NCBI GenBank assembly: GCA_043561795.1
Contig: CP121316.1
Location: forward strand, 754,061 to 818,060
Direction: 5' to 3'
Source of the DNA: Paracoccaceae bacterium
GTDB taxonomy: Bacteria > Pseudomonadota > Alphaproteobacteria > Rhodobacterales > Rhodobacteraceae
Length of the DNA stretch: 64,000 nucleotides
In this document: positions 11-18,342 of the stretch, in pieces
How the letters are laid out: each line of letters begins with the position of its first letter
Numbering within the stretch: position 1 is the stretch's first letter
Notes under the pieces: generated by a model
The model's database searches: none
Seen by the model: the letters and a program-made list of their open reading frames with translations, nothing else
Told to the model about the DNA's origin: nothing
Program-made: the position numbers and the translations under genes

Positions 11-1846
11 ATGGTGATGGATGCCCGCAACGGTGAAGTGATCTTCGCGCGCAATCATGATACCCGCCTGCACCCTGCCTCTCTGACAAAGATGATGACG
101 CTTTATGTGGCGTTCGAGGCCGTCAAACACGGCGAAGTCACGCTGGACACGCAATTCACCGTAAGTGCGCGCGCGGCAGGCACCTCTTGTGTGTGCCTTG
201 GGTTGCGCCCCGGCCAGCGCATCGCGCTGCGGTATCTGATTCGCGCTGCGGCGCTGCGCTCTGCCAATGATGCCTCTGTGGTGATCGCCGAAGGGATTTC
301 CGGCTCTGTCGAGGCATTTGCCGATCGTATGACGCGCACCGCCCGCGCGATGGGCATGTCAAACACCACCTTTCACAACCCCCACGGGCTGACACAGGCT
401 GGCCATCTGTCAAGCGCGCGGGACATGACCATTCTGGGCCGCCAGCTTTATTTTGATTATCCGCAATATTTCAACATCTTCTCCCGGCGCAGTGATCATG
501 CGGGCGTGGCGACCGTGCCCAATACCAACCGCCGTTTTCTGGATGCCTATTCTGGTGCAGACGGGATCAAGACAGGATTCACACGCGCGGCAGGGTTCAA
601 TCTGACAGCCTCGGCCAGACGCGGCGACAAGCATATCATCGCCACCATGTTTGGCGGCAGTTCGACAGCGGCGCGCAATGCGCATGTGGCCGAATTGCTG
701 GATATCGGCTTTAGCCGCGCAAGCGCGCGTGTGGCCACGCGCGCGCCTGCAACCCCGGCCTATCAGGGGCGGGGGGCTGTTGCCGTGGCGCAGGCCCCTG
801 CCGCCACCCGCAATGGCGACGAGGATACATCCGCCGCCGCCAAGACGATCCGGTTGCAAATGGCCGTGCGCTCCAGCCCGCGCCCGGCCGCGCGCCCGAT
901 GCGCGCGCCTGATCCGGCGGTGTTGCTGGCTGTGCGCGAAAGCGTGGATGCGGTGGTTTCTGAAATTGCGGCCGCGCAGCCGCCCGCGCCCGCGCCCGTC
1001 GCGGAACTGGCAACAGTTGCGCCTCAACCGGTGATGGATGCGCCGCCTGCGCGCCCGGAGTCTCTGGCCGTTGCCGATGCCCCGCAAACAGAGCTGGATG
1101 TGGCGCTTGCGGCAGGGTTCCGCCTTGCTGATCCGGAATTTCTGGAAGGAACAGAAGCCGCGACAGATGCCGATGCCCTGACCCTGACAGAGGCAAGCCC
1201 CATCCCCGAAGCGCGCCCGGAGGGGCTGGCAAAGGCTGTGGCCGAAACCCAGATGGCCGAACCCGATGCAGCCCCCGGCGCAGATACCCTGATTGCACTG
1301 GCAGAGGCCCCGCTGCCGCAAGCCTCTGGGGCAGATGAGATGCGCGACGATCCAGATGCGCTGACATGGCTTGGCGCAGAGGCCTCTTTCTTCGATGATG
1401 GGCCAGAGCCGATTGAAGATATGACAGCTCATGCCGATCTGGATATTGGCGCAGGTGCGATCCCTGCGGCGGTGCAATCCGGGATTATCCTGACAAGCTC
1501 CACCCGCAATCTGGAAACGCAGGCGATTGCGGCCGCCCTCGAGGCACAGATTGACAGCCAGCCCCAAGGGGCGGCCCCGGAAATCGTGCCGCGCCTGTCC
1601 ACCTCGGATGGCGGGCGGCTTTGGGGGGTGTCCTTGGGGCAGTTCAATTCGCGCGCGGCCGCCGAACGCAGCCTGATCACGGTCAAGATGGCAGAGGCCA
1701 ATTCGCTGGGCAATGGCGTTAGCCGCATTCGCCAGACAAGCGGGCGGTTTGAAGCGGCCTTTGCCGGCCTGACCCAGACAGAGGCAGAGCGCGCCTGCCT
1801 GCGCCTGCAAGCGCGCAGCATGGAGTGCGCTGTCGCCTATCCGTGA
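11..1846 (+). CDS. D-alanyl-D-alanine carboxypeptidase (peptidase S11) with long Ala/Pro/acidic linker and C-terminal SPOR-like domain; 5' end probably lies outside the window
   Basis: SxxK (SLTK), SxN (SAN) and KTG motifs. The frame is open back to base 2 (TAT GCG GCC ATG). C-terminal WGVSLGQF...ACLRLQARSMEC resembles SPOR. Confidence 0.9.
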   Translation: MVMDARNGEVIFARNHDTRLHPASLTKMMTLYVAFEAVKHGEVTLDTQFTVSARAAGTSCVCLGLRPGQRIALRYLIRAAALRSANDASVVIAEGISGSVEAFADRMTRTARAMGMSNTTFHNPHGLTQAGHLSSARDMTILGRQLYFDYPQYFNIFSRRSDHAGVATVPNTNRRFLDAYSGADGIKTGFTRAAGFNLTASARRGDKHIIATMFGGSSTAARNAHVAELLDIGFSRASARVATRAPATPAYQGRGAVAVAQAPAATRNGDEDTSAAAKTIRLQMAVRSSPRPAARPMRAPDPAVLLAVRESVDAVVSEIAAAQPPAPAPVAELATVAPQPVMDAPPARPESLAVADAPQTELDVALAAGFRLADPEFLEGTEAATDADALTLTEASPIPEARPEGLAKAVAETQMAEPDAAPGADTLIALAEAPLPQASGADEMRDDPDALTWLGAEASFFDDGPEPIEDMTAHADLDIGAGAIPAAVQSGIILTSSTRNLETQAIAAALEAQIDSQPQGAAPEIVPRLSTSDGGRLWGVSLGQFNSRAAAERSLITVKMAEANSLGNGVSRIRQTSGRFEAAFAGLTQTEAERACLRLQARSMECAVAYP

Positions 1847-1892
1847 CAGCGGCGCCGCTAGCGCCGCGCCTTGCGGCGCTGTATGATGCCAC

Positions 1893-3146
1893 ATGCCCGC
1901 ATTCTGCCGTGATTGCCTGACCAGATTTGACCAAGGGCCGCGCTGCCCTGCATGCCACTCGCCCCGCGTGCTGGCCGGGGCGGAACTGTTTGATCTGGCG
2001 ATTGCCCATATGGATTGCGATGCCTTTTATGCCAGCGTGGAAAAGCGCGACAACCCGGCGCTGCGCAACACGCCCGTGATCGTGGGCGGGGGCCAGCGCG
2101 GGGTGGTGACAACCGCGTGCTATATCGCGCGTATTCGTGGCGTGCGCTCGGCCATGCCAATGTTCAAGGCGCTCAAGCTTTGCCCCGAAGCCGTGGTCGT
2201 GAAACCGCGTTTTGCGGCCTATGAGGCCGCCTCGCGCGAGATACGCGCGATGATGCAAGACCTGACACCCGCCATTGAACCCCTCTCGCTGGACGAGGCA
2301 TTTCTGGATCTGTCAGGCACAGCGCGCCTGCAGGGCGCCCCGCCTGCGGTGCTGATGGCCGGGCTTGTGCGCCGGATGGAGCGAGAGTTGCGGCTTTCCG
2401 GCTCTGTGGGCCTGTCGCATAACAAGTTTCTGGCCAAGATCGCCTCGGATCTGGACAAGCCGCGCGGCTTTTCTGTCATCGGGCGGGCGGATACTGCAGA
2501 TTTTCTGCGCGGCAAGCCCATGGGGATCATCTGGGGGGTGGGCGCGGCCCTGCGGGCGCAATTGGAACGCGCGGGCATTGCCACGATTGATGATCTTTTG
2601 CGCTGGGATCAGTCCGATCTGGTGGCGCGGTTTGGGGCAACGGGCACGCGGCTTTGGCACTTGGCGCGCGGGCAGGATGCCCGGCGCGTAGCCCCTGACC
2701 GCGATGTGAAATCCATTTCCAAGGAAAGCACCTTTGACACCGATCTTGCAGAGGAGGGGCTTCTGGATGGGCATTTATGGCGGCTGGCCGATCAGGTCTC
2801 GCAGCGGGCAAAGGCGCGGGGGCTGGCCGGGCGGGTGGTTACGCTAAAGCTGAAGCGTGCGGATTTCCGCAGCCTGACGCGGCAAACCAGCCTGCACAGC
2901 CCCACGGCGCTGGCCGATGTGATCTATCGCAGCGCGCGGCCCTTGCTGGCGCAGGCCATGACGGCCGCGCCCTTTCGGCTGCTGGGCGTGGGCATATCGG
3001 ATCTCTGCCCAGATAGCGGCCCCGGTTTCAGCCCCGATTTGCTGGATCCCGACGCCGCAAAACGCGCAGAGGCCGAACGCGCCATGGACAAGCTGCGCGC
3101 CCGGTTCGGGCCAGATGCCGTGGTGAAGGGGCGCGCGCTGCGATAG
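1893..3146 (+). CDS. dinB: DNA polymerase IV (Y-family) with N-terminal zinc-ribbon
   Basis: HMDCDAFYASVE, YIARIRGVRSAMP, SLDEAFLD and KFLAKIASD motifs; CxxC...CxxC N-terminus typical of alphaproteobacterial DinB. Confidence 0.95.
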   Translation: MPAFCRDCLTRFDQGPRCPACHSPRVLAGAELFDLAIAHMDCDAFYASVEKRDNPALRNTPVIVGGGQRGVVTTACYIARIRGVRSAMPMFKALKLCPEAVVVKPRFAAYEAASREIRAMMQDLTPAIEPLSLDEAFLDLSGTARLQGAPPAVLMAGLVRRMERELRLSGSVGLSHNKFLAKIASDLDKPRGFSVIGRADTADFLRGKPMGIIWGVGAALRAQLERAGIATIDDLLRWDQSDLVARFGATGTRLWHLARGQDARRVAPDRDVKSISKESTFDTDLAEEGLLDGHLWRLADQVSQRAKARGLAGRVVTLKLKRADFRSLTRQTSLHSPTALADVIYRSARPLLAQAMTAAPFRLLGVGISDLCPDSGPGFSPDLLDPDAAKRAEAERAMDKLRARFGPDAVVKGRALR

Positions 3147-3184
3147 CGCGCCGAAGCAGGCATGACACGCTGTTTAATACGGGC

Positions 3185-3905
3185 TTTGAGCGGGTTGGGG
3201 ACATTAGGGTAGCGCACCAAGCCGCGCAGCGCTGGGCCGCGGGGCGGCGATCTGGCCTTGAGGCTAAGCGGTTTATGGCGGCAATGTCCCCGCGAAATTC
3301 AGGCTAAGCGCAGGTTGCAGCCAAATCGCCGTGCCGGGGGGCGGCCCGGCGATGCGCGGCGGACTGCGGCCTTTGCTCCGCGCGAGGGGCGCAAGGGCCA
3401 AGCGATGCGCTCCGATGCAAAGCCAATCCTCACCTTGAGGCTGATATCATGCCTTCCCCAAAGACAGGGCAGAAAGACAAGCCGCGCAGCGTCGGGCCGC
3501 GGTGCGGCGATCCATCCGCAGGGCTATGTCACTTTATGGCGGCAATATCCGGGCGACATTTAAGCTCAGCGCCCACGGCAGCCAAATCGCCGGGCCGAGG
3601 GGGCGGCCCTTTGAGGCGCGGCGGCCTTCGGCCTTTGCTCCGCGCTTGGTGAGGGGGCTAAGCGATGCGCTTCTATGCAAAGCCGCCAGTCACCGTGTGC
3701 GTGATATCCTTGCCTTCTCCAATGACGGAGCAAAAAGACAAGCCGCGCAGTGCTGGGCCGCGGGGCGGCGATCCGACCGGGGGGCTAAGCGCTTTATGGC
3801 GGCAATGTCCCCGCGAAATTCAGGCTAAGCGCAGGTTGCAGCCAAATCGCCGTGCCGGGGGGCGGCCCGGCGATGCGCGGCGGCCTGCGGCCTTGATTCC
3901 GCGCA
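3185..3905. repeat. Tandem array of three ~260-bp structured repeat units (third unit partial)
   Basis: CAAGCCGCGCAG unit starts at 3218, 3478 and 3739 (periods 260 and 261). 3272-3362 is identical to 3793-3883 (91 bp). The inter-core linkers are also homologous (AGCGATGCGCT..ATGCAAAGCC...GATATC..TGCCTT). Confidence 0.95.
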
Positions 3906-3994
3906 AGGGTTCGGCCTCAACGTCCTCTCTCCCACCCAAAGCTGCCCGTCATGCCGGAACCATCCGTCAGGTGCGGGCCACTAGTTTACCCCTG

Positions 3995-6160
3995 TCAGTT
4001 CCCGCCGAAAATCGCGCCCAGCACGCCGCGAATCGCATCTTCAAGCGGGGTCGTGCCACCGATTTGCCCCCCGCCGCCCTGCCGCGGCACAAAGGATTGC
4101 GGCGGCTCGAACACCGGCTGTTCCGGCTGGATCATGGGCAGGGGGCGCGGGGTCAGCCCCTCATGCACGCGGCTCATGGTTTCGCGCCAGATTTCGGGAG
4201 GCAATCCGCCGCCCGTTACCCCGGTAAGGGGCGAGTTGTCGTCATAGCCCATCCAGACGCCCGCCACGTAATCGGCGGTAAAGCCCAGAAACCACGCATC
4301 GCGCGCAGCCTGTGTCGTGCCGGTCTTGGCCGCAACATCCCAGCCATTCAGGCGCGCGCGCTGGCCTGTGCCCTCTGCGACAACGCGGGTCATCATCCAT
4401 GTCAGCACCTGCGCCGAACGTTCCGAGATGACCCGATCCCCAATCCCGGTGCTGGCCCCGAACAGCGGTGCGGGATCTTCCAGCAGGCGCAGTTCGGAAA
4501 TGCCATAGGGGCGCACTGCACTGCCGCCATTCAGGATACCCGCATAGGCGGCGGTCATTTCCAGCAAATTGGCCTCGGACGCGCCCAGTGCCAGGGCGGG
4601 GCCTTCGGCCAGATCACTGTGCAGGCCGAATTGATTGGCCACCTCACGCACCCGCGCCCGGCCCATCGCTTCGGATATCCGCACGGCGGGGGTGTTGAGA
4701 GAGCGCGCAAGCGCCTCTGTCAGGGTAACAAAGCCATGAAACTGGTTGTCATAATTGCGCGGCGACCATGGGCCAGAGCCGGGGATATTGATGGTCAGCG
4801 GCGCATCTTCCACAATGTCGAACGGTTCAAACCCGTTTTCCAGCGCGGCAGCGAACAGGAAGGGTTTGAAGGAAGAGCCGGTTTGCCGCATCGCCTGTGT
4901 GGCGCGGTTGAACCCGCCCACTTGCGCCGAGCGCCCGCCCACCATGGCGCGCACAGCCCCATCCGCAGACATGACAACAACCGCCACTTCGGCCTCTGAT
5001 CCTTCGCGCACGCGGTTTGCAAACACCTCTGTCACCGCCGCCTCTGTGGCCGCCTGAAGGCGCGGATCAAAGGTGGTGCGCATGATCACATCTTCTGTGG
5101 TGGTGCGGGTCAGAAATGCGGGGCCGGATTGCATCAGCCAATCTGCGAAATGAATCCCGCGCGGCGCTTCGGCATTTGCCGATAGTGTTGCAGGAAATGA
5201 CCGGGCTTCGGCCACTTCATACTCTGTCAGATACCCTTCCTGCTGCATCAGCCCGATCACCACATTCGCACGATCCTGCGCGCGGCGCAGGTTGCGCGTG
5301 GGCGCATAGAGCGACGGCGCCACCAGAAGGCCCGCCAGCATCGCGGCTTCGGATGGGCCAACTTCGGCAGCCGAGCGGCCAAAATAGCGCTGCGCCGCAG
5401 CTTCAAACCCGCGCGATCCGGCCCCCAAAAAGGCGCGGTTCATGTAGATGGTCAGAATTTCATCCTTGCTGAAGCGCGCTTCCAGCGCAAAGGCATAGGG
5501 CAATTCCTGTATCTTGCGCCAGACAGTGCCCCGGCGGCAGTCTGCTTCATAGGCGGCCTCTGAGTCCCATTGCGCCGGATCGAACACGACACCAAGGCAG
5601 AGCAGCTTGGCCACCTGCTGCGTGATGGTAGAGCCACCCGCCCCGGAAAACGCCCCGCGCCCGGATTGCAAGTTAGACCGAATCGCCCCGGCGATCCCGC
5701 GCGGTGATACGCCCAGATGCCAGTAAAAGCGCCTGTCTTCGGTTGCTATGATGGCATTCTTCAAATGGGGAGAGACTGTTTGCGCGGTGATGATGCCGCC
5801 AAATGTTTCGCCGCGCCATGCAAAGACATTGCCATCTTTGTCCAGCATCGTGACAGAGCCGCGCGCGCGCGCATCCAGCAAGTCCGAAAGCGGCGGCATG
5901 GTCATGTAAAAATAAGAGCTTGCCAGCAGTAGCAACATGCCGACAGTCGCGCCAAGGCGCCATGTCACACCCCAAGCCAGCCGCCATACAAGGCCGATCG
6001 TGCCGCGAATGAAGCGCATGACGATATTGCCTTCCTTGCGCTTTGGGGCAGGTTTGCGCTGGCGGGCCGGGGTTGCCTTTTGGGCCGCGGTTGCTTTGCG
6101 CGCTGGCGCGTTGCGCCGATCCGCCACCAATTTGCGCCCGCTGCCGCCAGAACTGCCCAT
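3995..6160 (-). CDS. Class A penicillin-binding protein (PBP1A family, transglycosylase/transpeptidase)
   Basis: EDRRF, GGSTITQQ, RKIQE and EILTIYMN transglycosylase motifs; GSSFKP (SxxK), SLN and KTG transpeptidase motifs; N-terminal TM segment. Confidence 0.93.
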   Translation of the reverse strand: MGSSGGSGRKLVADRRNAPARKATAAQKATPARQRKPAPKRKEGNIVMRFIRGTIGLVWRLAWGVTWRLGATVGMLLLLASSYFYMTMPPLSDLLDARARGSVTMLDKDGNVFAWRGETFGGIITAQTVSPHLKNAIIATEDRRFYWHLGVSPRGIAGAIRSNLQSGRGAFSGAGGSTITQQVAKLLCLGVVFDPAQWDSEAAYEADCRRGTVWRKIQELPYAFALEARFSKDEILTIYMNRAFLGAGSRGFEAAAQRYFGRSAAEVGPSEAAMLAGLLVAPSLYAPTRNLRRAQDRANVVIGLMQQEGYLTEYEVAEARSFPATLSANAEAPRGIHFADWLMQSGPAFLTRTTTEDVIMRTTFDPRLQAATEAAVTEVFANRVREGSEAEVAVVVMSADGAVRAMVGGRSAQVGGFNRATQAMRQTGSSFKPFLFAAALENGFEPFDIVEDAPLTINIPGSGPWSPRNYDNQFHGFVTLTEALARSLNTPAVRISEAMGRARVREVANQFGLHSDLAEGPALALGASEANLLEMTAAYAGILNGGSAVRPYGISELRLLEDPAPLFGASTGIGDRVISERSAQVLTWMMTRVVAEGTGQRARLNGWDVAAKTGTTQAARDAWFLGFTADYVAGVWMGYDDNSPLTGVTGGGLPPEIWRETMSRVHEGLTPRPLPMIQPEQPVFEPPQSFVPRQGGGGQIGGTTPLEDAIRGVLGAIFGGN

Positions 6161-6292
6161 ATCTCAAACCTGCTTGCCGGGGTGCTGTCCCATTTTAATG
6201 GCTTTTTGCGTGAATCTGCCATGTTTGCCACCAGATTACCACTGCAATCGCGGGAAGTTGTTTACCCGCGCGCCAGCCCGCCATCATCTTTT

Positions 6293-6339
6293 CGCCTAAT
6301 TTTTGTGCAATGCTTCTTTTTTGTGCACATATTTGTGCA
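6293..6339. promoter_or_regulatory. Candidate tandem NtrC-binding sites upstream of glnK-amtB
   Basis: 17-bp CGCCTAATTTTTGTGCA (6293-6309) and TGCTTCTTTTTTGTGCA (6311-6327) fit the NtrC TGC-N11-GCA pattern. A third, 16-bp palindrome TGCACATATTTGTGCA lies at 6324-6339. Confidence 0.55.
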
Positions 6340-6456
6340 AATTACCCCGGAACCCCCTGCCGCAGCGCGGCAAGATATTGAGAAATGCCCCCCGCACCTC
6401 ACTGATTGGCCCTGTGCGATCCTTTGGACACTCGCTCAGAAGAAAGGGGATGACCT

Positions 6457-6795
6457 GTGAAATACATCATTGCGACAATCAAGCCCTTCAAGCTTGAAGA
6501 AGTCCGCGAAGCGCTGACGGGTATCGGCGTGCGCGGCATGATGGTCACCGAGATCAAGGGGTTCGGTGCCCAATCGGGCCATACGGAAATCTATCGCGGC
6601 GCTGAATATGCCGTGAATTTCGTGCCCAAGATCAAGCTGGAAATCGCTGTTTCCGATGCGATGGCCGATCAGGTGGTGGAAACGCTGCAAAAAACGGCGC
6701 GCACCGACAAAATCGGCGATGGCAAGATTTTCGTGCTTGATCTGGCCGCGGCTACCCGCGTGCGCACTGGAGAAACCGGCGATGACGCGCTCTGA
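6457..6795 (+). CDS. glnK: Nitrogen regulatory protein P-II (GlnK)
   Basis: 112 aa; T-loop EIYRGAEY, GDGKIFV and RVRTGE motifs; directly upstream of amtB; GTG start. Confidence 0.95.
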   Translation: MKYIIATIKPFKLEEVREALTGIGVRGMMVTEIKGFGAQSGHTEIYRGAEYAVNFVPKIKLEIAVSDAMADQVVETLQKTARTDKIGDGKIFVLDLAAATRVRTGETGDDAL

Positions 6796-6832
6796 GCCTT
6801 TGGCAGCAAGATTTCAGGAAGGACAACACAAG

Positions 6833-8185
6833 ATGCAACTGAAAACCTTACTCCCGCTTACCGCTGCGGCAGGCCTTTTGCCAAGCCTTGGGTTTGCGCA
6901 GGAAGAAAGCACTGTCGCCGAAGCTCTGGAAGCGGTGGCAACGCTGAACACTGAAATGGTGTTCATCATGAACTCGCTGCTGTTTCTTGTCGGCGGCTTT
7001 CTGGTGTTTTTCATGGCGGCAGGCTTCTGCATGCTGGAAACCGGGCTGGTGCGTTCCAAAAACGCGACAATGCAGGCCACAAAGAACGTGGCGCTTTTCT
7101 CGCTGGCCGCGATTGCCTATTTCATCGTCGGCTTCAACCTGATGTATCCGGGCGATGGCTGGGTGATTGAAGGCATGCTTGGCGGTTTCTCTGCCACTGA
7201 GCTGGAGCCTGTGGGCGTGACCGCCGAAGATGTCTATGACGTGACATATGCCTCTGTCGGGTCGGATTTCATCTTTCAGCTGATGTTCTGTGCCGCTGTC
7301 GCCTCTATCGTGTCGGGCGCTGTGGCCGAACGCATCAAGCTGTGGCCGTTCCTTGTGTTCGTGGTTGTGCTGACAGGCGTGATCTACCCGATTCAGGCAA
7401 GCTGGAGCTGGGGCGGCGGTTTCCTGTCTGAAATGGGCTTCTCCGATTTCGCAGGTTCCTCCATCGTGCATGCCGCAGGCGGCTGGGCCGCGCTGGCCGG
7501 GGTGCTGGTGCTGGGTGCACGCTATGGCAAATACGGCAAAGATGGCCGCGTGACAGTCATGCCGGGTTCCAACCTGCCGCTGGCAACACTGGGCATGTTC
7601 ATTCTGTGGCTGGGTTGGTTTGGGTTCAATGGCGGCTCTCAGCTGGCCATGGGCACAATCTCTGATGTGGCCGATGTAAGCCGGATTTTCGCCAACACGA
7701 ACACTGCTGCGTCTGGTGGTGCTGTGGCCGCGCTGATCCTCTCGACCCTGCTTTACAAAAAGCCTGACCTGACGATGGTGCTGAACGGCGCGCTGGCTGG
7801 CCTCGTGTCGATCACCGCAGAACCGCTGGCCCCCTCGCTGGGTGCGGCAACGCTGATCGGTGCTGTTGGTGGTGTGATCGTCGTGTTCACCGTGCCGCTG
7901 CTGGACAAGCTGAAAATCGATGATGTGGTCGGTGCGATCCCGGTTCACCTGTTTGCAGGTCTGTGGGGCACGATGGCTGTGCCGCTCAGCAATAGCGATG
8001 CAAGCTTTGTGACGCAGTTTATCGGCATGGCGATCATCGGGGCCTTCATGTTCACTGTATCGCTGGTGGTGTGGTTGATCCTGAAAGCGGTGATGGGCAT
8101 TCGCATCAGCGACGAAGATCAGGTCACAGGGTTGGATAAGACGGAAATGGGGATGGAAGCCTATCCCGAATTCGGCAACACCTGA
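6833..8185 (+). CDS. amtB: Ammonium transporter
   Basis: DFAGSSIVHAAGG, WFGFNGGS and DDVVGAIPVH motifs; signal-peptide-like N-terminus; AGGAAGGA RBS before ATG 6833. Confidence 0.96.
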   Translation: MQLKTLLPLTAAAGLLPSLGFAQEESTVAEALEAVATLNTEMVFIMNSLLFLVGGFLVFFMAAGFCMLETGLVRSKNATMQATKNVALFSLAAIAYFIVGFNLMYPGDGWVIEGMLGGFSATELEPVGVTAEDVYDVTYASVGSDFIFQLMFCAAVASIVSGAVAERIKLWPFLVFVVVLTGVIYPIQASWSWGGGFLSEMGFSDFAGSSIVHAAGGWAALAGVLVLGARYGKYGKDGRVTVMPGSNLPLATLGMFILWLGWFGFNGGSQLAMGTISDVADVSRIFANTNTAASGGAVAALILSTLLYKKPDLTMVLNGALAGLVSITAEPLAPSLGAATLIGAVGGVIVVFTVPLLDKLKIDDVVGAIPVHLFAGLWGTMAVPLSNSDASFVTQFIGMAIIGAFMFTVSLVVWLILKAVMGIRISDEDQVTGLDKTEMGMEAYPEFGNT

Positions 8186-8206
8186 GACTTGCCCAAGCGA
8201 GACGAC

Positions 8207-8235
8207 AAGGCCCCGCGCAGCTTGCGCGGGGCCTT
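8207..8235 (+). terminator. Rho-independent terminator-like hairpin after amtB
   Basis: AAGGCCCCGCGCA-gct-TGCGCGGGGCCTT is a 13-bp perfect stem followed by TGTGA. Confidence 0.75.
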
Positions 8236-8351
8236 TGTGATGGGAAAGAGTGGCAAATATGCGCCCGGCCTTGCATGTTTGGGATAAGTTTCGCCAGATA
8301 CTGCGAAGGGCGCTTATGGGGGGAGAGGGGGAAAGTCAGAGCTAATTGCCC

Positions 8352-8546
8352 TGCGCGGAGTCAAGGCCGCAGGCCGCCGCGCCTCAAAGGGCCGCCCCCC
8401 GGCACGGCGATTTGGCTGCACCCTGCGCATAGCGTGAGTTTCGCGCGGATTTGGCCAGCATAAAGTGACATAGCCCTGCGGATGGATCGCCGCACCGCGG
8501 CCCGACGCTGCGCGGCTTTGCGCCCTCCCCCAATGTCGCCTAACCG
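8352..8546 (-). repeat. Inverted copy of the 3.2-3.9 kb repeat unit
   Basis: 8459-8518 is the exact reverse complement of 3479-3538 (60 bp). The remainder matches units 1, 2 and 3 in mosaic fashion. Confidence 0.93.
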
Positions 8547-8581
8547 CACCAAGCCCGGTTAACAGGGGCCGCAGGCCCCCC

Positions 8582-8711
8582 GGGCAGCGCCCGACCGCCC
8601 CCAGGGCGGGCGCTTTGCTGCCACAGGCGCGGGGATTGAGGTCACGGGGGATTGTGCGATAAAGTGCAGACCACAGATGTCAGAGTGCCCACCCGCGGTC
8701 GGGCGCTGCCC
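8582..8711. repeat. REP-like doublet (second repeat family): two GC-rich hairpins in inverted orientation
   Basis: GGGCAGCGCCCGACCG (8582-8597) and its perfect reverse complement CGGTCGGGCGCTGCCC (8696-8711); each arm can also fold into its own hairpin. Confidence 0.8.
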
Positions 8712-8754
8712 TGTCCTGTGCAGGACGCCTTAAGGGGCGCGGTTGAGCAGCGCT

Positions 8755-8820
8755 GCGCGGCGGCCTTCGGCCTTTGCTCCGCGCTTGGTGCTTCACTCAG
8801 ATGTCCCCAACCCGCTCAAA
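8755..8820 (+). repeat. 3' fragment of the family-1 repeat carrying the inverted terminal motif
   Basis: 8755-8790 is identical to 3616-3651 (36 bp). 8801-8820 ATGTCCCCAACCCGCTCAAA is the exact reverse complement of 3185-3204. Confidence 0.9.
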
Positions 8821-8865
8821 CCTGCCCTTGAGCACCCACAGTCAGGCGCAAAACACGCGCGGGGG

Positions 8866-9564
8866 CTACCCCCCCACAAGCCCTGCCAATTTCACGCGCA
8901 AGGCATCCACCGCCGCGACATAGCCTGCCAATGCCCCTTCTGCCGCCGGCAGTGCGGCCGCAATTTCTGCGGCCAGCACATAGGGTGCAGCCGCAATGCC
9001 CGCCAAGAGCACTGGCACAGCGAACCCCCGCAGAAAGCTGCGCCATGTCGCGGCAGTGGGGGTGGGCTGGCTTGTATTGCCTTCCTCTACCGCATCGGCG
9101 CCAAGGGCACCCGGTGGCGGGCGGAAATCTTCAATATCTGGAAAACTCGCCGGGGTTTGCTTGGCTGTGCTCTCAGGCGGGCTCTCAGGCGGGCTTTCGG
9201 GCGGCAGCTGTGGCGCGGCGCTGGGCCAGGTGGGGGCAATGGTGCCGGATTGCTGGCTGTCTTGTGGTTCCTTGGCTTCGGTAGCGCGCAAGCGGGCCTC
9301 GAACGCGGCTTCTTCGCGCAAAACATCCAGTGCAGCGCCACTGACAGTGCGCGGCGCAGCGCCGGGCGCTGGCGGCGTGTCGGGCCGCGTGTCTGGCGGC
9401 GTGTCTGGCAACGGCGCTTCGGCGGCAACCTCTGGCGCAGGCTTTGGATGCGCCTGAAACCAGATGAAATCGCAAGCAGAGCATTGCACCTCGCGCCCCT
9501 CTGGCGGCAAAAGCATGTCATCCACTTCATAATGTGCTTGGCAACTTGGGCAAATTAAGCGCAT
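8866..9564 (-). CDS. MJ0042-family zinc-ribbon protein with Pro-rich linker and C-terminal TM segment
   Basis: MRLICPSCQAHYEV...VQCSAC...WFQ; PPES x3 and PDT repeats; hydrophobic C-terminus; usual neighbour of ftsE in Rhodobacteraceae. Confidence 0.85.
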   Translation of the reverse strand: MRLICPSCQAHYEVDDMLLPPEGREVQCSACDFIWFQAHPKPAPEVAAEAPLPDTPPDTRPDTPPAPGAAPRTVSGAALDVLREEAAFEARLRATEAKEPQDSQQSGTIAPTWPSAAPQLPPESPPESPPESTAKQTPASFPDIEDFRPPPGALGADAVEEGNTSQPTPTAATWRSFLRGFAVPVLLAGIAAAPYVLAAEIAAALPAAEGALAGYVAAVDALRVKLAGLVGG

Positions 9565-9698
9565 CTAACTGACCTTGATCAAAACCGCATGCCGGGCATT
9601 GGCGCGGCGTTTCTTATGTTGTAGCAAGCACGCAGACGATCTCCAAGTTTATAAACGGTATTTGCAAGGACAGGGATAGAGATGGTCATGGCGAAGGT

Positions 9699-10379
9699 GT
9701 GGCGTTTATGATCGTCTTTGACGGTGTGTCGCATGATTATGGCGGCGGGGCCTTGTTCCGGGATGCTTCGCTCAGGCTGGAGGGGGGCAGTTTCCATTTT
9801 CTGACAGGCCCGTCCGGGGCCGGGAAAAGCACCATTCTGAAACTGTGTTATGGGGAATTGCTGCCAAGTTCGGGCAAGATTACCCTTATGGGCCAAGATC
9901 GAAGCACCATGACGCGCGACCAGTTGGCAGAGGCCCGCCAGCGCATTGGCGTGGTGCATCAGGATTGTCAGTTTCTGGATCACCTCAGCGTGGCACAGAA
10001 TGTGGGCCTGCCCATGACGGCCACAGGGCGGCGCTTGCTGGACGCTGATTTGCGCGATTTGCTGGGCTGGGTTGGGCTGGCCGACAGGGCAGAGGCGCTG
10101 CCCCCCACCCTTTCGGGCGGAGAGCGCCAGCGCGCCGCGCTTGCCCGCGCCGTCATCGCCGCGCCCAGCCTGCTGCTGGCCGATGAACCAACAGGCAATC
10201 TGGATTGGGAAATGTCGCAACGCCTGCTTTTGCTGATGCTGGAATTGAACCGCATGGGCACGGCAGTTCTGATTGCCACGCATGATCTGAACCTGATCCG
10301 CTTTGCCAAGGCCCATGCGAATGCGCGTGTTTTGCGCATATCGGGCCGCAAACTGACACTGGCGGGGGCAGAACTGTGA
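9699..10379 (+). CDS. ftsE: Cell division ABC ATPase FtsE
   Basis: GPSGAGKST Walker A, LSGGERQR signature, LLADEPTGNLD and ATHD; overlaps ftsX. The start may be ATG 9708. Confidence 0.9.
   Translation: MAFMIVFDGVSHDYGGGALFRDASLRLEGGSFHFLTGPSGAGKSTILKLCYGELLPSSGKITLMGQDRSTMTRDQLAEARQRIGVVHQDCQFLDHLSVAQNVGLPMTATGRRLLDADLRDLLGWVGLADRAEALPPTLSGGERQRAALARAVIAAPSLLLADEPTGNLDWEMSQRLLLLMLELNRMGTAVLIATHDLNLIRFAKAHANARVLRISGRKLTLAGAEL

Positions 10380-17058: not shown

Positions 17059-18342
<1,284 letters not shown>

Follow-up and report, generated by a model that had tools for sequence, protein, structure and literature searches.

A tandem hairpin array in a Rhodobacteraceae genome, best read as part of a new MITE/REPIN/BIME-like mosaic repeat family

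What is the tandem repeat that lies between two convergent genes in this member of the Rhodobacteraceae? The window that we analyzed, a stretch of 64,000 nucleotides (positions 754,061 to 818,060 of contig CP121316.1), belongs to a genome of 3.97 Mb, here called G000, which is assembled as one contig and has a G+C content of 60%. Several scenarios may explain the repeat. First, it could consist of three head-to-tail copies of the inner part of a noncoding, nonautonomous repeat of the selfish MITE/REPIN/BIME kind. Alternatively, its units could be DNA sites that the host has domesticated, structured RNAs encoded in tandem, or copies of a core that is mobile by itself. We hold the first of these scenarios to be the probable one, and below we set out the evidence on each of them.

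The array occupies the gap between a gene for a Y-family DNA polymerase (DinB-like; 1893-3146, plus strand; Pfam IMS, IMS_C, and IMS_HHH_1) and a gene for a class A PBP (3995-6160, minus strand; Pfam Transgly and Transpeptidase), both of which flank the element and lie outside it. Tandem Repeats Finder delimits it at 3218-3909, with a period of 260, 2.7 copies, 77% matches, and a score of 909. Each unit is made up of a 166-nt hairpin core and a linker of ~94 nt. Three cores, all on the plus strand, were recovered with nhmmer: unit 1 at 3218-3384 (model positions 1-165, E value of 1e-46), unit 2 at 3478-3646 (1-166, 2e-42), and unit 3 at 3739-3905 (1-166, 6e-48). Between them, on the same strand, the linker census places linker 1 at 3385-3477 (94-nt class) and linker 2 at 3647-3738 (93-nt class). 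Units 1 and 3 are 93% identical across 171 nt and contain an identical 91-nt stretch, located at 3272-3362 in unit 1. Unit 2 is ~80% identical to either of them and represents a separate, divergent subtype, which carries TTTGAG instead of GGCGAT on the 3' side of the stem. Identity between the two linkers is 78%. A preliminary description, made from the sequence alone, had reported unit starts at 3218, 3478, and 3739 in a convergent gap, 91 identical bp common to units 1 and 3 with unit 2 different, and homologous linkers; Tandem Repeats Finder, nhmmer, the Pfam domains of the two genes, and the pairwise identities bear out each of these points.

Inverted arms bracket the array. On the left, positions 3179-3217 (plus strand) hold the inner part of an A-type arm together with a junction spacer, the A-arm motif GGCAGGTTTGAGCGGGTTGGGGACAT being located at genome positions 757239-757264; this copy lacks the outermost ~30 nt of a full arm, and the same arm flanks solo copies elsewhere. 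On the right, a B-type arm lies inverted at 3906-3981 (minus strand; B-arm motifs at genome positions 757992-758017 and 758014-758041), with 14 nt separating its tip from the PBP stop codon. Since a truncated A arm and a complete inverted B arm bound the array, we read it as one element whose core-plus-linker segment has been triplicated.

Further parts of the same family are found downstream in the window. A solo core lies inverted at 8352-8518 (minus strand; nhmmer 1-166, E value of 1e-45), so that it and the array form inverted repeats around a 4.4-kb PBP-glnK-amtB block. Next to it are "element 2," a hairpin repeat of ~145 nt that is weakly related to the core (8564-8710, minus strand; a weak nhmmer match on the opposite strand); an isolated 3' tail module of the core, composed of GCGCGG, a small hairpin, and CCGCGC (8750-8784, plus strand; BLAST match to core positions 132-166); and an inverted A-type arm (8785-8856, minus strand; A-arm motifs at genome positions 762861-762886 and 762889-762916). 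It had been proposed that the left-end motif of the array, TTTGAGCGGGTTGGGGACAT-N8-GCACCAAG, reappears inverted in this region and that a full element would have TIR-like ends of ~45 bp. The motif is indeed present in inverted form at 8783-8820, and inverted arms do exist, but they measure ~70 bp and are thus longer than had been guessed.

We searched the whole genome with iterated nhmmer and obtained 161 matches, among which ~119 are full-length 166-nt cores, distributed over 72 loci. These loci comprise 46 solo copies and 26 arrays of 2 to 5 units. The 46 linkers in the census fall into two classes, of ~93 to 98 nt and ~79 to 83 nt, which account for the two periods of 260 and 248 bp. As seen in the solo copies, a complete element is ~310 bp long and consists of two inverted ~70-bp arms around the 166-nt core. 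The arms are of an A type (GTGTTTTGCGCCTGACGGTGGGTGCTCA...GGCAGGTTTGAGCGGGTTGGGGACAT) or a B type (GTGGCCTGCACCTGACGGAGGGTTCCGGCATGACGGGCAGCTTTGGGGGG), and their tips follow the pattern GTG(T/G)(T/C)(T/C)TGC...GCA..CAC. The 28-nt arm tips are near-identical in 12 copies each and are absent from the rest of the genome. Element 2, for its part, recurs at 10 or more loci beside arms and tail modules.

How are these elements placed relative to genes? Our gene map, obtained with a purpose-written codon-usage gene finder, contains 3548 genes and is 87% coding. Every one of the 72 loci is intergenic. Convergent gaps contain 37 of them, tandem gaps 31, and divergent gaps 4, compared with genome-wide totals of 473, 2602, and 472 for these gap types, which amounts to a roughly fourfold excess in convergent gaps. 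The elements are therefore found only between genes, mostly at 3' ends. With respect to the upstream gene, they are oriented at random, both by copy (33 same versus 30 opposite) and by locus (17 versus 14). The contact with the neighboring gene is often immediate: at 9 of 24 tips, the first base of the arm is also the last base of the neighbor's TAG stop, and CTA|G precedes 11 of 24 arm tips, mostly where it serves as the neighbor's TAG stop codon. These CTA|G arm tips had prompted the idea of an IS630-like element with a TA target, which we take up below.

We examined the structure of the core in an alignment of 109 copies from G000, its congeners, and named Roseovarius, Nioella, Primorskyibacter, and Sulfitobacter records. 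In this alignment, the middle varies, and three stretches are near-invariant: ~35 nt at the 5' end, a central CTTTAT, and ~70 nt at the 3' end. In the RNAalifold prediction, a helix of ~26 bp connects the 5' and 3' conserved parts and is accompanied by a small terminal hairpin. Namely, 35 nt at the 5' side and 35 nt at the 3' side would pair around a variable middle of ~75 nt, and a small G+C hairpin and CCGCGC would then follow. The end pairings pointed out earlier, GGCGGCGAT with ATCGCCG and GGGCCGC with GCGGCCC, are part of this helix, which is kept across the 109 copies and several genera.

Under the predicted structure, 98% of the paired cells are compatible with pairing. Two-sided changes occur in 13 of 30 pairs, compared with 4.0 ± 1.0 in shuffled alignments (none of 500 shuffles reaches 13) and 2 to 4 in slid controls. 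The small hairpin shows coupled changes from GGCC/GGCC to GGGC/GCCC and to GGCGCGC/GCGCGCC; a reading of it as a UNCG/GNRA tetraloop was dropped, since the pairs that covary agree with a stem of 4 bp and a loop of 3 nt. Three further coupled changes, in GGTGCGGCGAT/ATCGCCGTGCC, are seen in two species. Among one-sided changes, a hand tally on the alignment gives 72 of the G·U type and 12 of the A·C type, a ratio of ~6:1, and two of the consensus pairs are wobbles. From this asymmetry, we designate as "sense" the strand whose fold is kept, and we conclude that the fold of one strand is under selection. We infer that the G·U excess runs opposite to the replication-associated C-to-T bias expected on lagging-strand sequence. 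With DNA parameters, 102 of 107 copies fold more stably in the sense than in the antisense strand, by ~4 kcal/mol. Shuffled sequences of this G+C content reach free energies as good as those of a single copy or of the whole array (z of -0.5 to -1.4), so it is covariation, and not folding energy, that carries the structural claim. This covariation fits a fold of single-stranded DNA equally well.

The orientation of the arrays follows replication. Cumulative GC skew locates the origin of G000 at ~1.26 Mb and the terminus at ~3.21 Mb. Arrays almost always place the fold-selected strand on the leading-strand template: in 24 of 26 arrays, the sense strand is on the lagging-strand sequence, which is equivalent (binomial P = 1e-5). 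Array orientation switches between 1.229 Mb (plus) and 1.307 Mb (minus), an interval that brackets the skew minimum. Solo copies, on the other hand, show no polarity in this genome (22 versus 24), and they differ in this respect from the arrays (Fisher P = 1e-4). The same polarity is followed by 17 of 20 copies in a second genome, G024, where the switch is at ~0.78 Mb and the skew changes sign between 0.70 and 0.875 Mb, and by 14 to 15 of 17 loci in a third genome from a different genus, G041, where the switch coincides with the skew-defined terminus at ~2.1 Mb. A replication bias in the orientation of the arms (24 of 32 for the A arm but 8 of 16 for the B arm) was treated as unreliable. Hairpin-mediated deletion is biased to the lagging strand, and on account of this bias, the polarity may be explained by the loss or contraction of unfavorable arrays. 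Arrays with the stabler hairpin on the exposed lagging-strand template would contract or be selected against, and those in the opposite orientation would persist or expand.

We determined how far the family extends beyond this genome. Within the genus, 20 of 24 species carry it, as species-specific subtypes with 73 to 95% identity. Of 201 Rhodobacteraceae genera sampled, 43 contain a 67-nt 3' module, with identities of up to 97 to 100%. A 30-mer from this module is found exactly in many Roseovarius records, in Nioella, Primorskyibacter, and Sulfitobacter, and in two soda-lake MAGs, and the module is carried on 95 plasmid records; the copies on Pseudosulfitobacter and Salipiger plasmids are unannotated and lie in convergent gaps. 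From a few to more than 100 copies are present per genome. A search of window positions 2500-10000 against Rfam 15 with permissive filters gave no match at an E value of ≤1, and the full-text literature that we searched holds no description of this repeat family. We regard it as native to Rhodobacteraceae, and it appears to be undescribed in the searchable literature; an undescribed family had been among the candidates of the preliminary description.

Conservation is higher in the interior modules than in the arms. This pattern is not what a decaying MITE usually shows, and it is also compatible with a host function. In such a scenario, the copies would be domesticated DNA sites, with a chromosomal protein binding the conserved modules, and the polarity would stem from a function of these sites in replication, segregation, or supercoiling, not from passive survival. 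Several observations agree with it: the 5' and 3' modules are 97 to 100% identical over ~60 nt across genera while the middle varies, a replication-linked polarity is seen in three genomes, 46 copies are crowded within 3.81-3.97 Mb of G000, and a GANTC motif, read from the alignment by eye, is kept in most core tails. Yet a family of host sites would not be expected to be so patchy, being found in only the 43 genera and absent from 4 of 24 congeners, nor to differ in presence and absence between sister species. The lack of polarity among the solo copies of G000 and the range in copy number also speak against a host role, and we identified no candidate binding protein. On balance, we regard domestication as unlikely.

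A second alternative is that the core is a structured RNA, either a multicopy small RNA gene or a cis-acting 3'-UTR module such as a terminator, stabilizer, or processing site, in which case the arrays would be tandem RNA units. The long conserved helix, its compensatory changes, the 6:1 bias of one strand toward G·U-compatible changes, and the location at gene 3' ends are what such an RNA would show, and in RNA libraries of other organisms, the module lies at contig ends, in contigs that are long and deeply covered. However, those contigs indicate at most read-through transcription, the array contains no sigma-70-like promoter and no canonical terminator, and Rfam offers no match. Moreover, the orientation of the copies is random with respect to the upstream gene and follows replication instead; the sense strand is mostly on the lagging strand and hence antisense to most read-through. 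The only runs that contain this strain are labeled as metatranscriptomes but are DNA-like, with unstranded contigs of 27 to 51 kb and flat depth, and the depth peak over the array in these runs reflects copy number only. An RNA function for the core is, in our judgment, distinctly unlikely.

To follow the dynamics of the family, we compared G000 with a sister species, G009, whose genes are ~93 to 94% identical. All of the ~25 element sites of G009 are occupied in G000, which implies slow turnover through new insertion. The two species differ in the presence or absence of whole elements. The site at 3078257-3078570 in G000 is empty in G009, where a clean joint (CTG^GCGC) is found and nothing is duplicated; this one clean filled/empty pair thus shows no target-site duplication. 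A second site, at 1553937, is likewise empty in G009. Both empty sites lack the arms and the core together; therefore, the unit of gain or loss is the whole element, arms included. In addition, the locus at 3422445 is empty in four other congeners, and at 1432202, G009 retains the tail module alone.

Once in place, elements change in two ways. First, the core-plus-linker segment is amplified in place, which gives rise to the arrays of 2 to 5 units, and array copy numbers differ between G000 and G009 (e.g., 1 versus 2, and 1 versus 15 across one region). Second, copies exchange their middles: the arms stay, and the core between them undergoes replacement, inversion, or exchange for a second hairpin module. 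At 7 of 11 orthologous sites, the core is flipped against a background of conserved arms and flanks, and a swap between the core and element 2 is seen at two orthologous sites. Positional orthologs are 83 to 92% identical, compared with a paralog median of 85%, and the positional ortholog is the best match in only 1 of 11 cases. The ongoing homogenization that had been suspected from units 1 and 3 is thus seen between species as well, with orthologous copies no more alike than random paralogs. Most simply, existing copies overwrite each other via gene conversion, with the arms serving as homology. The repeats also sit at synteny breakpoints between the two genomes, and repeat copies form the breakpoints of inversions.

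These exchanges may also be explained by a third alternative, in which the 166-nt core alone is a mobile cassette that inserts either way, by a site-specific or single-strand mechanism, into the center of a palindromic arm frame, which would be a terminator hairpin or a distinct repeat of greater age. This would account for cores in both orientations within the same type of A/B frame, for arms conserved at orthologous sites around a replaced or flipped middle, for the swap of the core for element 2 inside the same frame, and for the direct repeat CCGCGC at both core ends. In contrast to what a cassette would leave behind, no empty arm frames are found in G000: a search of this genome for the arms as an independent palindromic repeat with empty copies gave none, and the arms are always within ~50 nt of a core or element 2. 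As described above, arms and core are also missing together from the two empty sites in G009. The junction spacers vary with arm type, a pattern that fits gene conversion between two element subtypes equally well. A mobile core within an older frame is thus very doubtful.

Three simpler explanations can be rejected. An assembly artefact is at odds with adjacent units that differ by 7 to 23%, with arrays at 26 loci, and with arrays at orthologous sites in a related species that have other copy numbers; a CRISPR array, already set aside in the preliminary description, would need identical repeats of 24 to 48 nt and unique spacers, whereas here the repeats are 166 nt long and the "spacers" are mutually homologous at 78%; and protein coding, for which no credible open reading frame had been seen, is contradicted by a period that is not a multiple of 3, by indels between copies, and by the absence of a gene call over any of the 72 loci.

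If the element is selfish DNA, which enzyme may have moved it? G000 is rich in insertion sequences, including IS4-like, IS1182/IS5-like, IS66, IS3, IS21, and IS256 elements, together with group II intron reverse transcriptases. None of the nine resident IS families in G000 has ends matching the element tips; the lone overlap with IS ends is a 12-mer, TTTGAGCGGGTT, at one IS4-like end. We rejected a RAYT/IS200 mobilizer, since Y1_Tnp (PF01797, RAYT) has no matches in G000, with control genomes positive, and does not co-occur with the 3' module across 200 genera (6 of 42 module-bearing genomes versus 22 of 200 overall). An IS110/bridge-RNA mechanism was rejected because IS110 is common but unassociated with the module (25 of 42 versus 111 of 200), and an IS630/TA-target mechanism was rejected because G000 has no DDE_3 gene and the corresponding counts are 13 of 42 versus 62 of 200. 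No autonomous copy, with core modules flanking an open reading frame, was found.

The comparison with known systems places the family among several of them. Like REPINs and their RAYTs, it consists of high-copy extragenic repeats at gene 3' ends, with species-specific subfamilies and no target-site duplication; its two inverted halves would form a long hairpin, and its strand asymmetry suggests a single-strand hairpin logic. It differs in size, with a 166-nt core and a ~310-nt element compared with ~20 to 40 nt for a REP and ~100 nt for a REPIN, in its long outer inverted arms, and in the absence of a RAYT/Y1 gene from G000. Within the core, as in a REPIN, two inverted strands, here of ~35 nt, form the helix, but they are not themselves palindromes and lie 75 nt apart within a 166-nt unit. 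BIME-2 elements of enterobacteria combine palindromic units and linker motifs of several classes, repeated head to tail in extragenic positions after genes, and BIMEs are bound by gyrase, IHF, and Pol I. Our family shares this mosaic plan, with head-to-tail repetition of unit and linker in 26 arrays, two linker classes, and extragenic positions mostly after genes. It has no sequence relation to BIMEs, however; its period is 250 to 260 bp rather than tens of base pairs, and direct repeats of one large hairpin take the place of alternating short palindromes.

PATEs, which derive from IS200/IS605, are also hairpin dependent, leave no target duplication, and show a replication orientation bias. 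They need a Y1 TnpA, which is absent from G000, and have no terminal inverted repeats. Furthermore, the polarity expected for IS608 is toward the lagging-strand template, whereas in our arrays, the better-folding strand is on the leading-strand template. The stem-loop MITEs (Correia, ERIC/IRU, RUP, and MITEPye1) resemble our elements in being small, noncoding, intergenic, and foldable, with terminal inverted repeats and variable presence. MITEPye1 of Paracoccus yeei, the sole Rhodobacterales MITE that we found in the literature searched, has 18-bp IS1182-like TIRs, 4-bp direct repeats, and 1 to 3 copies (PMC11578231). Our family differs from it in having ~70-bp arms, more than 100 copies, internal tandem amplification, and no matching resident IS.

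A MITE or REPIN had been named among the candidates for this array. The layout is indeed of that kind, and the family shares with MITEs a length of ~310 bp, a lack of coding capacity, terminal inverted repeats, and insertion polymorphism between relatives. Yet our search of G000 found no parent insertion sequence and no RAYT/Y1 gene, and the one clean filled/empty pair shows no target-site duplication. Membership fails both for the REPIN-RAYT system and for the textbook MITE, and the best reading is that of a new MITE/REPIN/BIME-like mosaic repeat family that behaves like a small parasitic DNA element. As selfish DNA of this kind, the family would have spread, in the past or at present, with the help of an enzyme, and its present-day shape would be due mainly to replication slippage and gene conversion.

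We also considered a more specific version, in which the family is mobilized or homogenized via a single-stranded DNA route, by an enzyme of a class with no established connection to repeats of this type. Here, a hairpin intermediate of the sense strand would be recognized by the invariant 5' and 3' modules and would integrate at replication forks in the nascent lagging strand, with the arms as homology or target. This route would jointly explain the strand-specific selection on the fold, the polarity in three genomes, the absence of a target duplication, and the swaps and flips in place; nonetheless, we give it only a small chance of being correct.

If the selfish reading holds, the genomes of the Rhodobacteraceae, a major marine and soda-lake group, are shaped by a large and unannotated repeat family. 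This family would mark inversion and synteny breakpoints, break short-read assemblies, abut stop codons, and grow satellite-like arrays. It combines an unusual set of features: a large hairpin core, long arms, amplification in place, cassette exchange, replication-oriented arrays, no target duplication, no known transposase partner, and near-invariant modules across genera. Two of these go beyond the usual picture of MITEs and REPs, namely, a 67-nt module that is near-invariant across genera with no known transposase alongside and a clear replication-dependent polarity of the arrays. The polarity would provide a natural system for hairpin-driven repeat instability on leading- and lagging-strand templates, and a protein that recognizes the invariant modules could reveal a new mobilization or DNA-binding activity.

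The 4.4-kb block formed by the PBP gene (-), glnK (+) and amtB (+), at window 3906-8520, is bounded at both ends by copies of the 166-nt core hairpin repeat in inverted orientation, which align with each other over 133 nt at 83% identity and over 117 nt at 86%. In three congeners (G010, G012 and G020), this block lies in the opposite orientation to that of our genome, G000, so that the Y-family polymerase gene stands opposite amtB rather than the PBP gene. The sister species, G009, has a third gene arrangement at the same flanking repeats.

Just beyond the block, at window 8564-8710, lies element 2, a second hairpin repeat of ~145 nt with at least 10 copies in G000. The neighbors of each copy are an A-type arm and a 3' tail module of the core that stands alone. 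Element 2 occupies positions 510250 and 1499280 of G000, and in both cases the orthologous site of the sister species holds a core. Copies of the core are also unevenly spread along the genome: 46 of the ~119, organized as 14 arrays, are packed within ~160 kb outside the window (C1:3,810,000-3,969,919 and 1-27,000). The genes between these crowded arrays form what look like unremarkable operons on either strand. The matching region of the sister species is much poorer in copies, and its genes follow another order.

An IS1182/IS5-like insertion sequence with 13 copies, TIR GTTCNNCCTGAACAAC and 6-bp AT-rich duplications interrupts, at C1:16,500-18,160 (beyond the window), a core that begins a 5-unit array, and lies within the AT-rich loop (TATGTC) at the apex of that core. 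In addition, the 12-mer TTTGAGCGGGTT occurs both in the A arm (window 3185-3196) and in the left end of a 20-copy IS4-like element (for example, at C1:45,0xx), about equally far from the tip in each; the ends are otherwise dissimilar, and the match may be due to chance.

Four runs from a pond sample, X1 to X4, which are labelled as metatranscriptomes, cover window 1800-6300 with contigs of 27-51 kb from a strain ~99% identical. Because these contigs are so long and their depth is flat over genes, the libraries behave as genomic DNA and are therefore unusable as evidence of expression. Elsewhere in the window, the enolase gene lies at 17068-18342; C1:2,205,369-2,206,643 holds another copy of it, with at least 85% identity.

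Within the tail CCTTGANTCCGCGC, most core copies appear to retain a GANTC site (GATTC, GACTC or GAGTC), as at window 3889-3895; GANTC is the target of the CcrM methylase of alphaproteobacteria. Across the genome, the TAG stop codon of a neighboring gene ends precisely at the first base of the arm at 9 of 24 tips (compare window 3981/3995), and arm tips without an adjoining stop codon do not retain TA. Either the elements inserted at TAG/CTAG sites or they contribute part of the stop codon of the adjacent gene.
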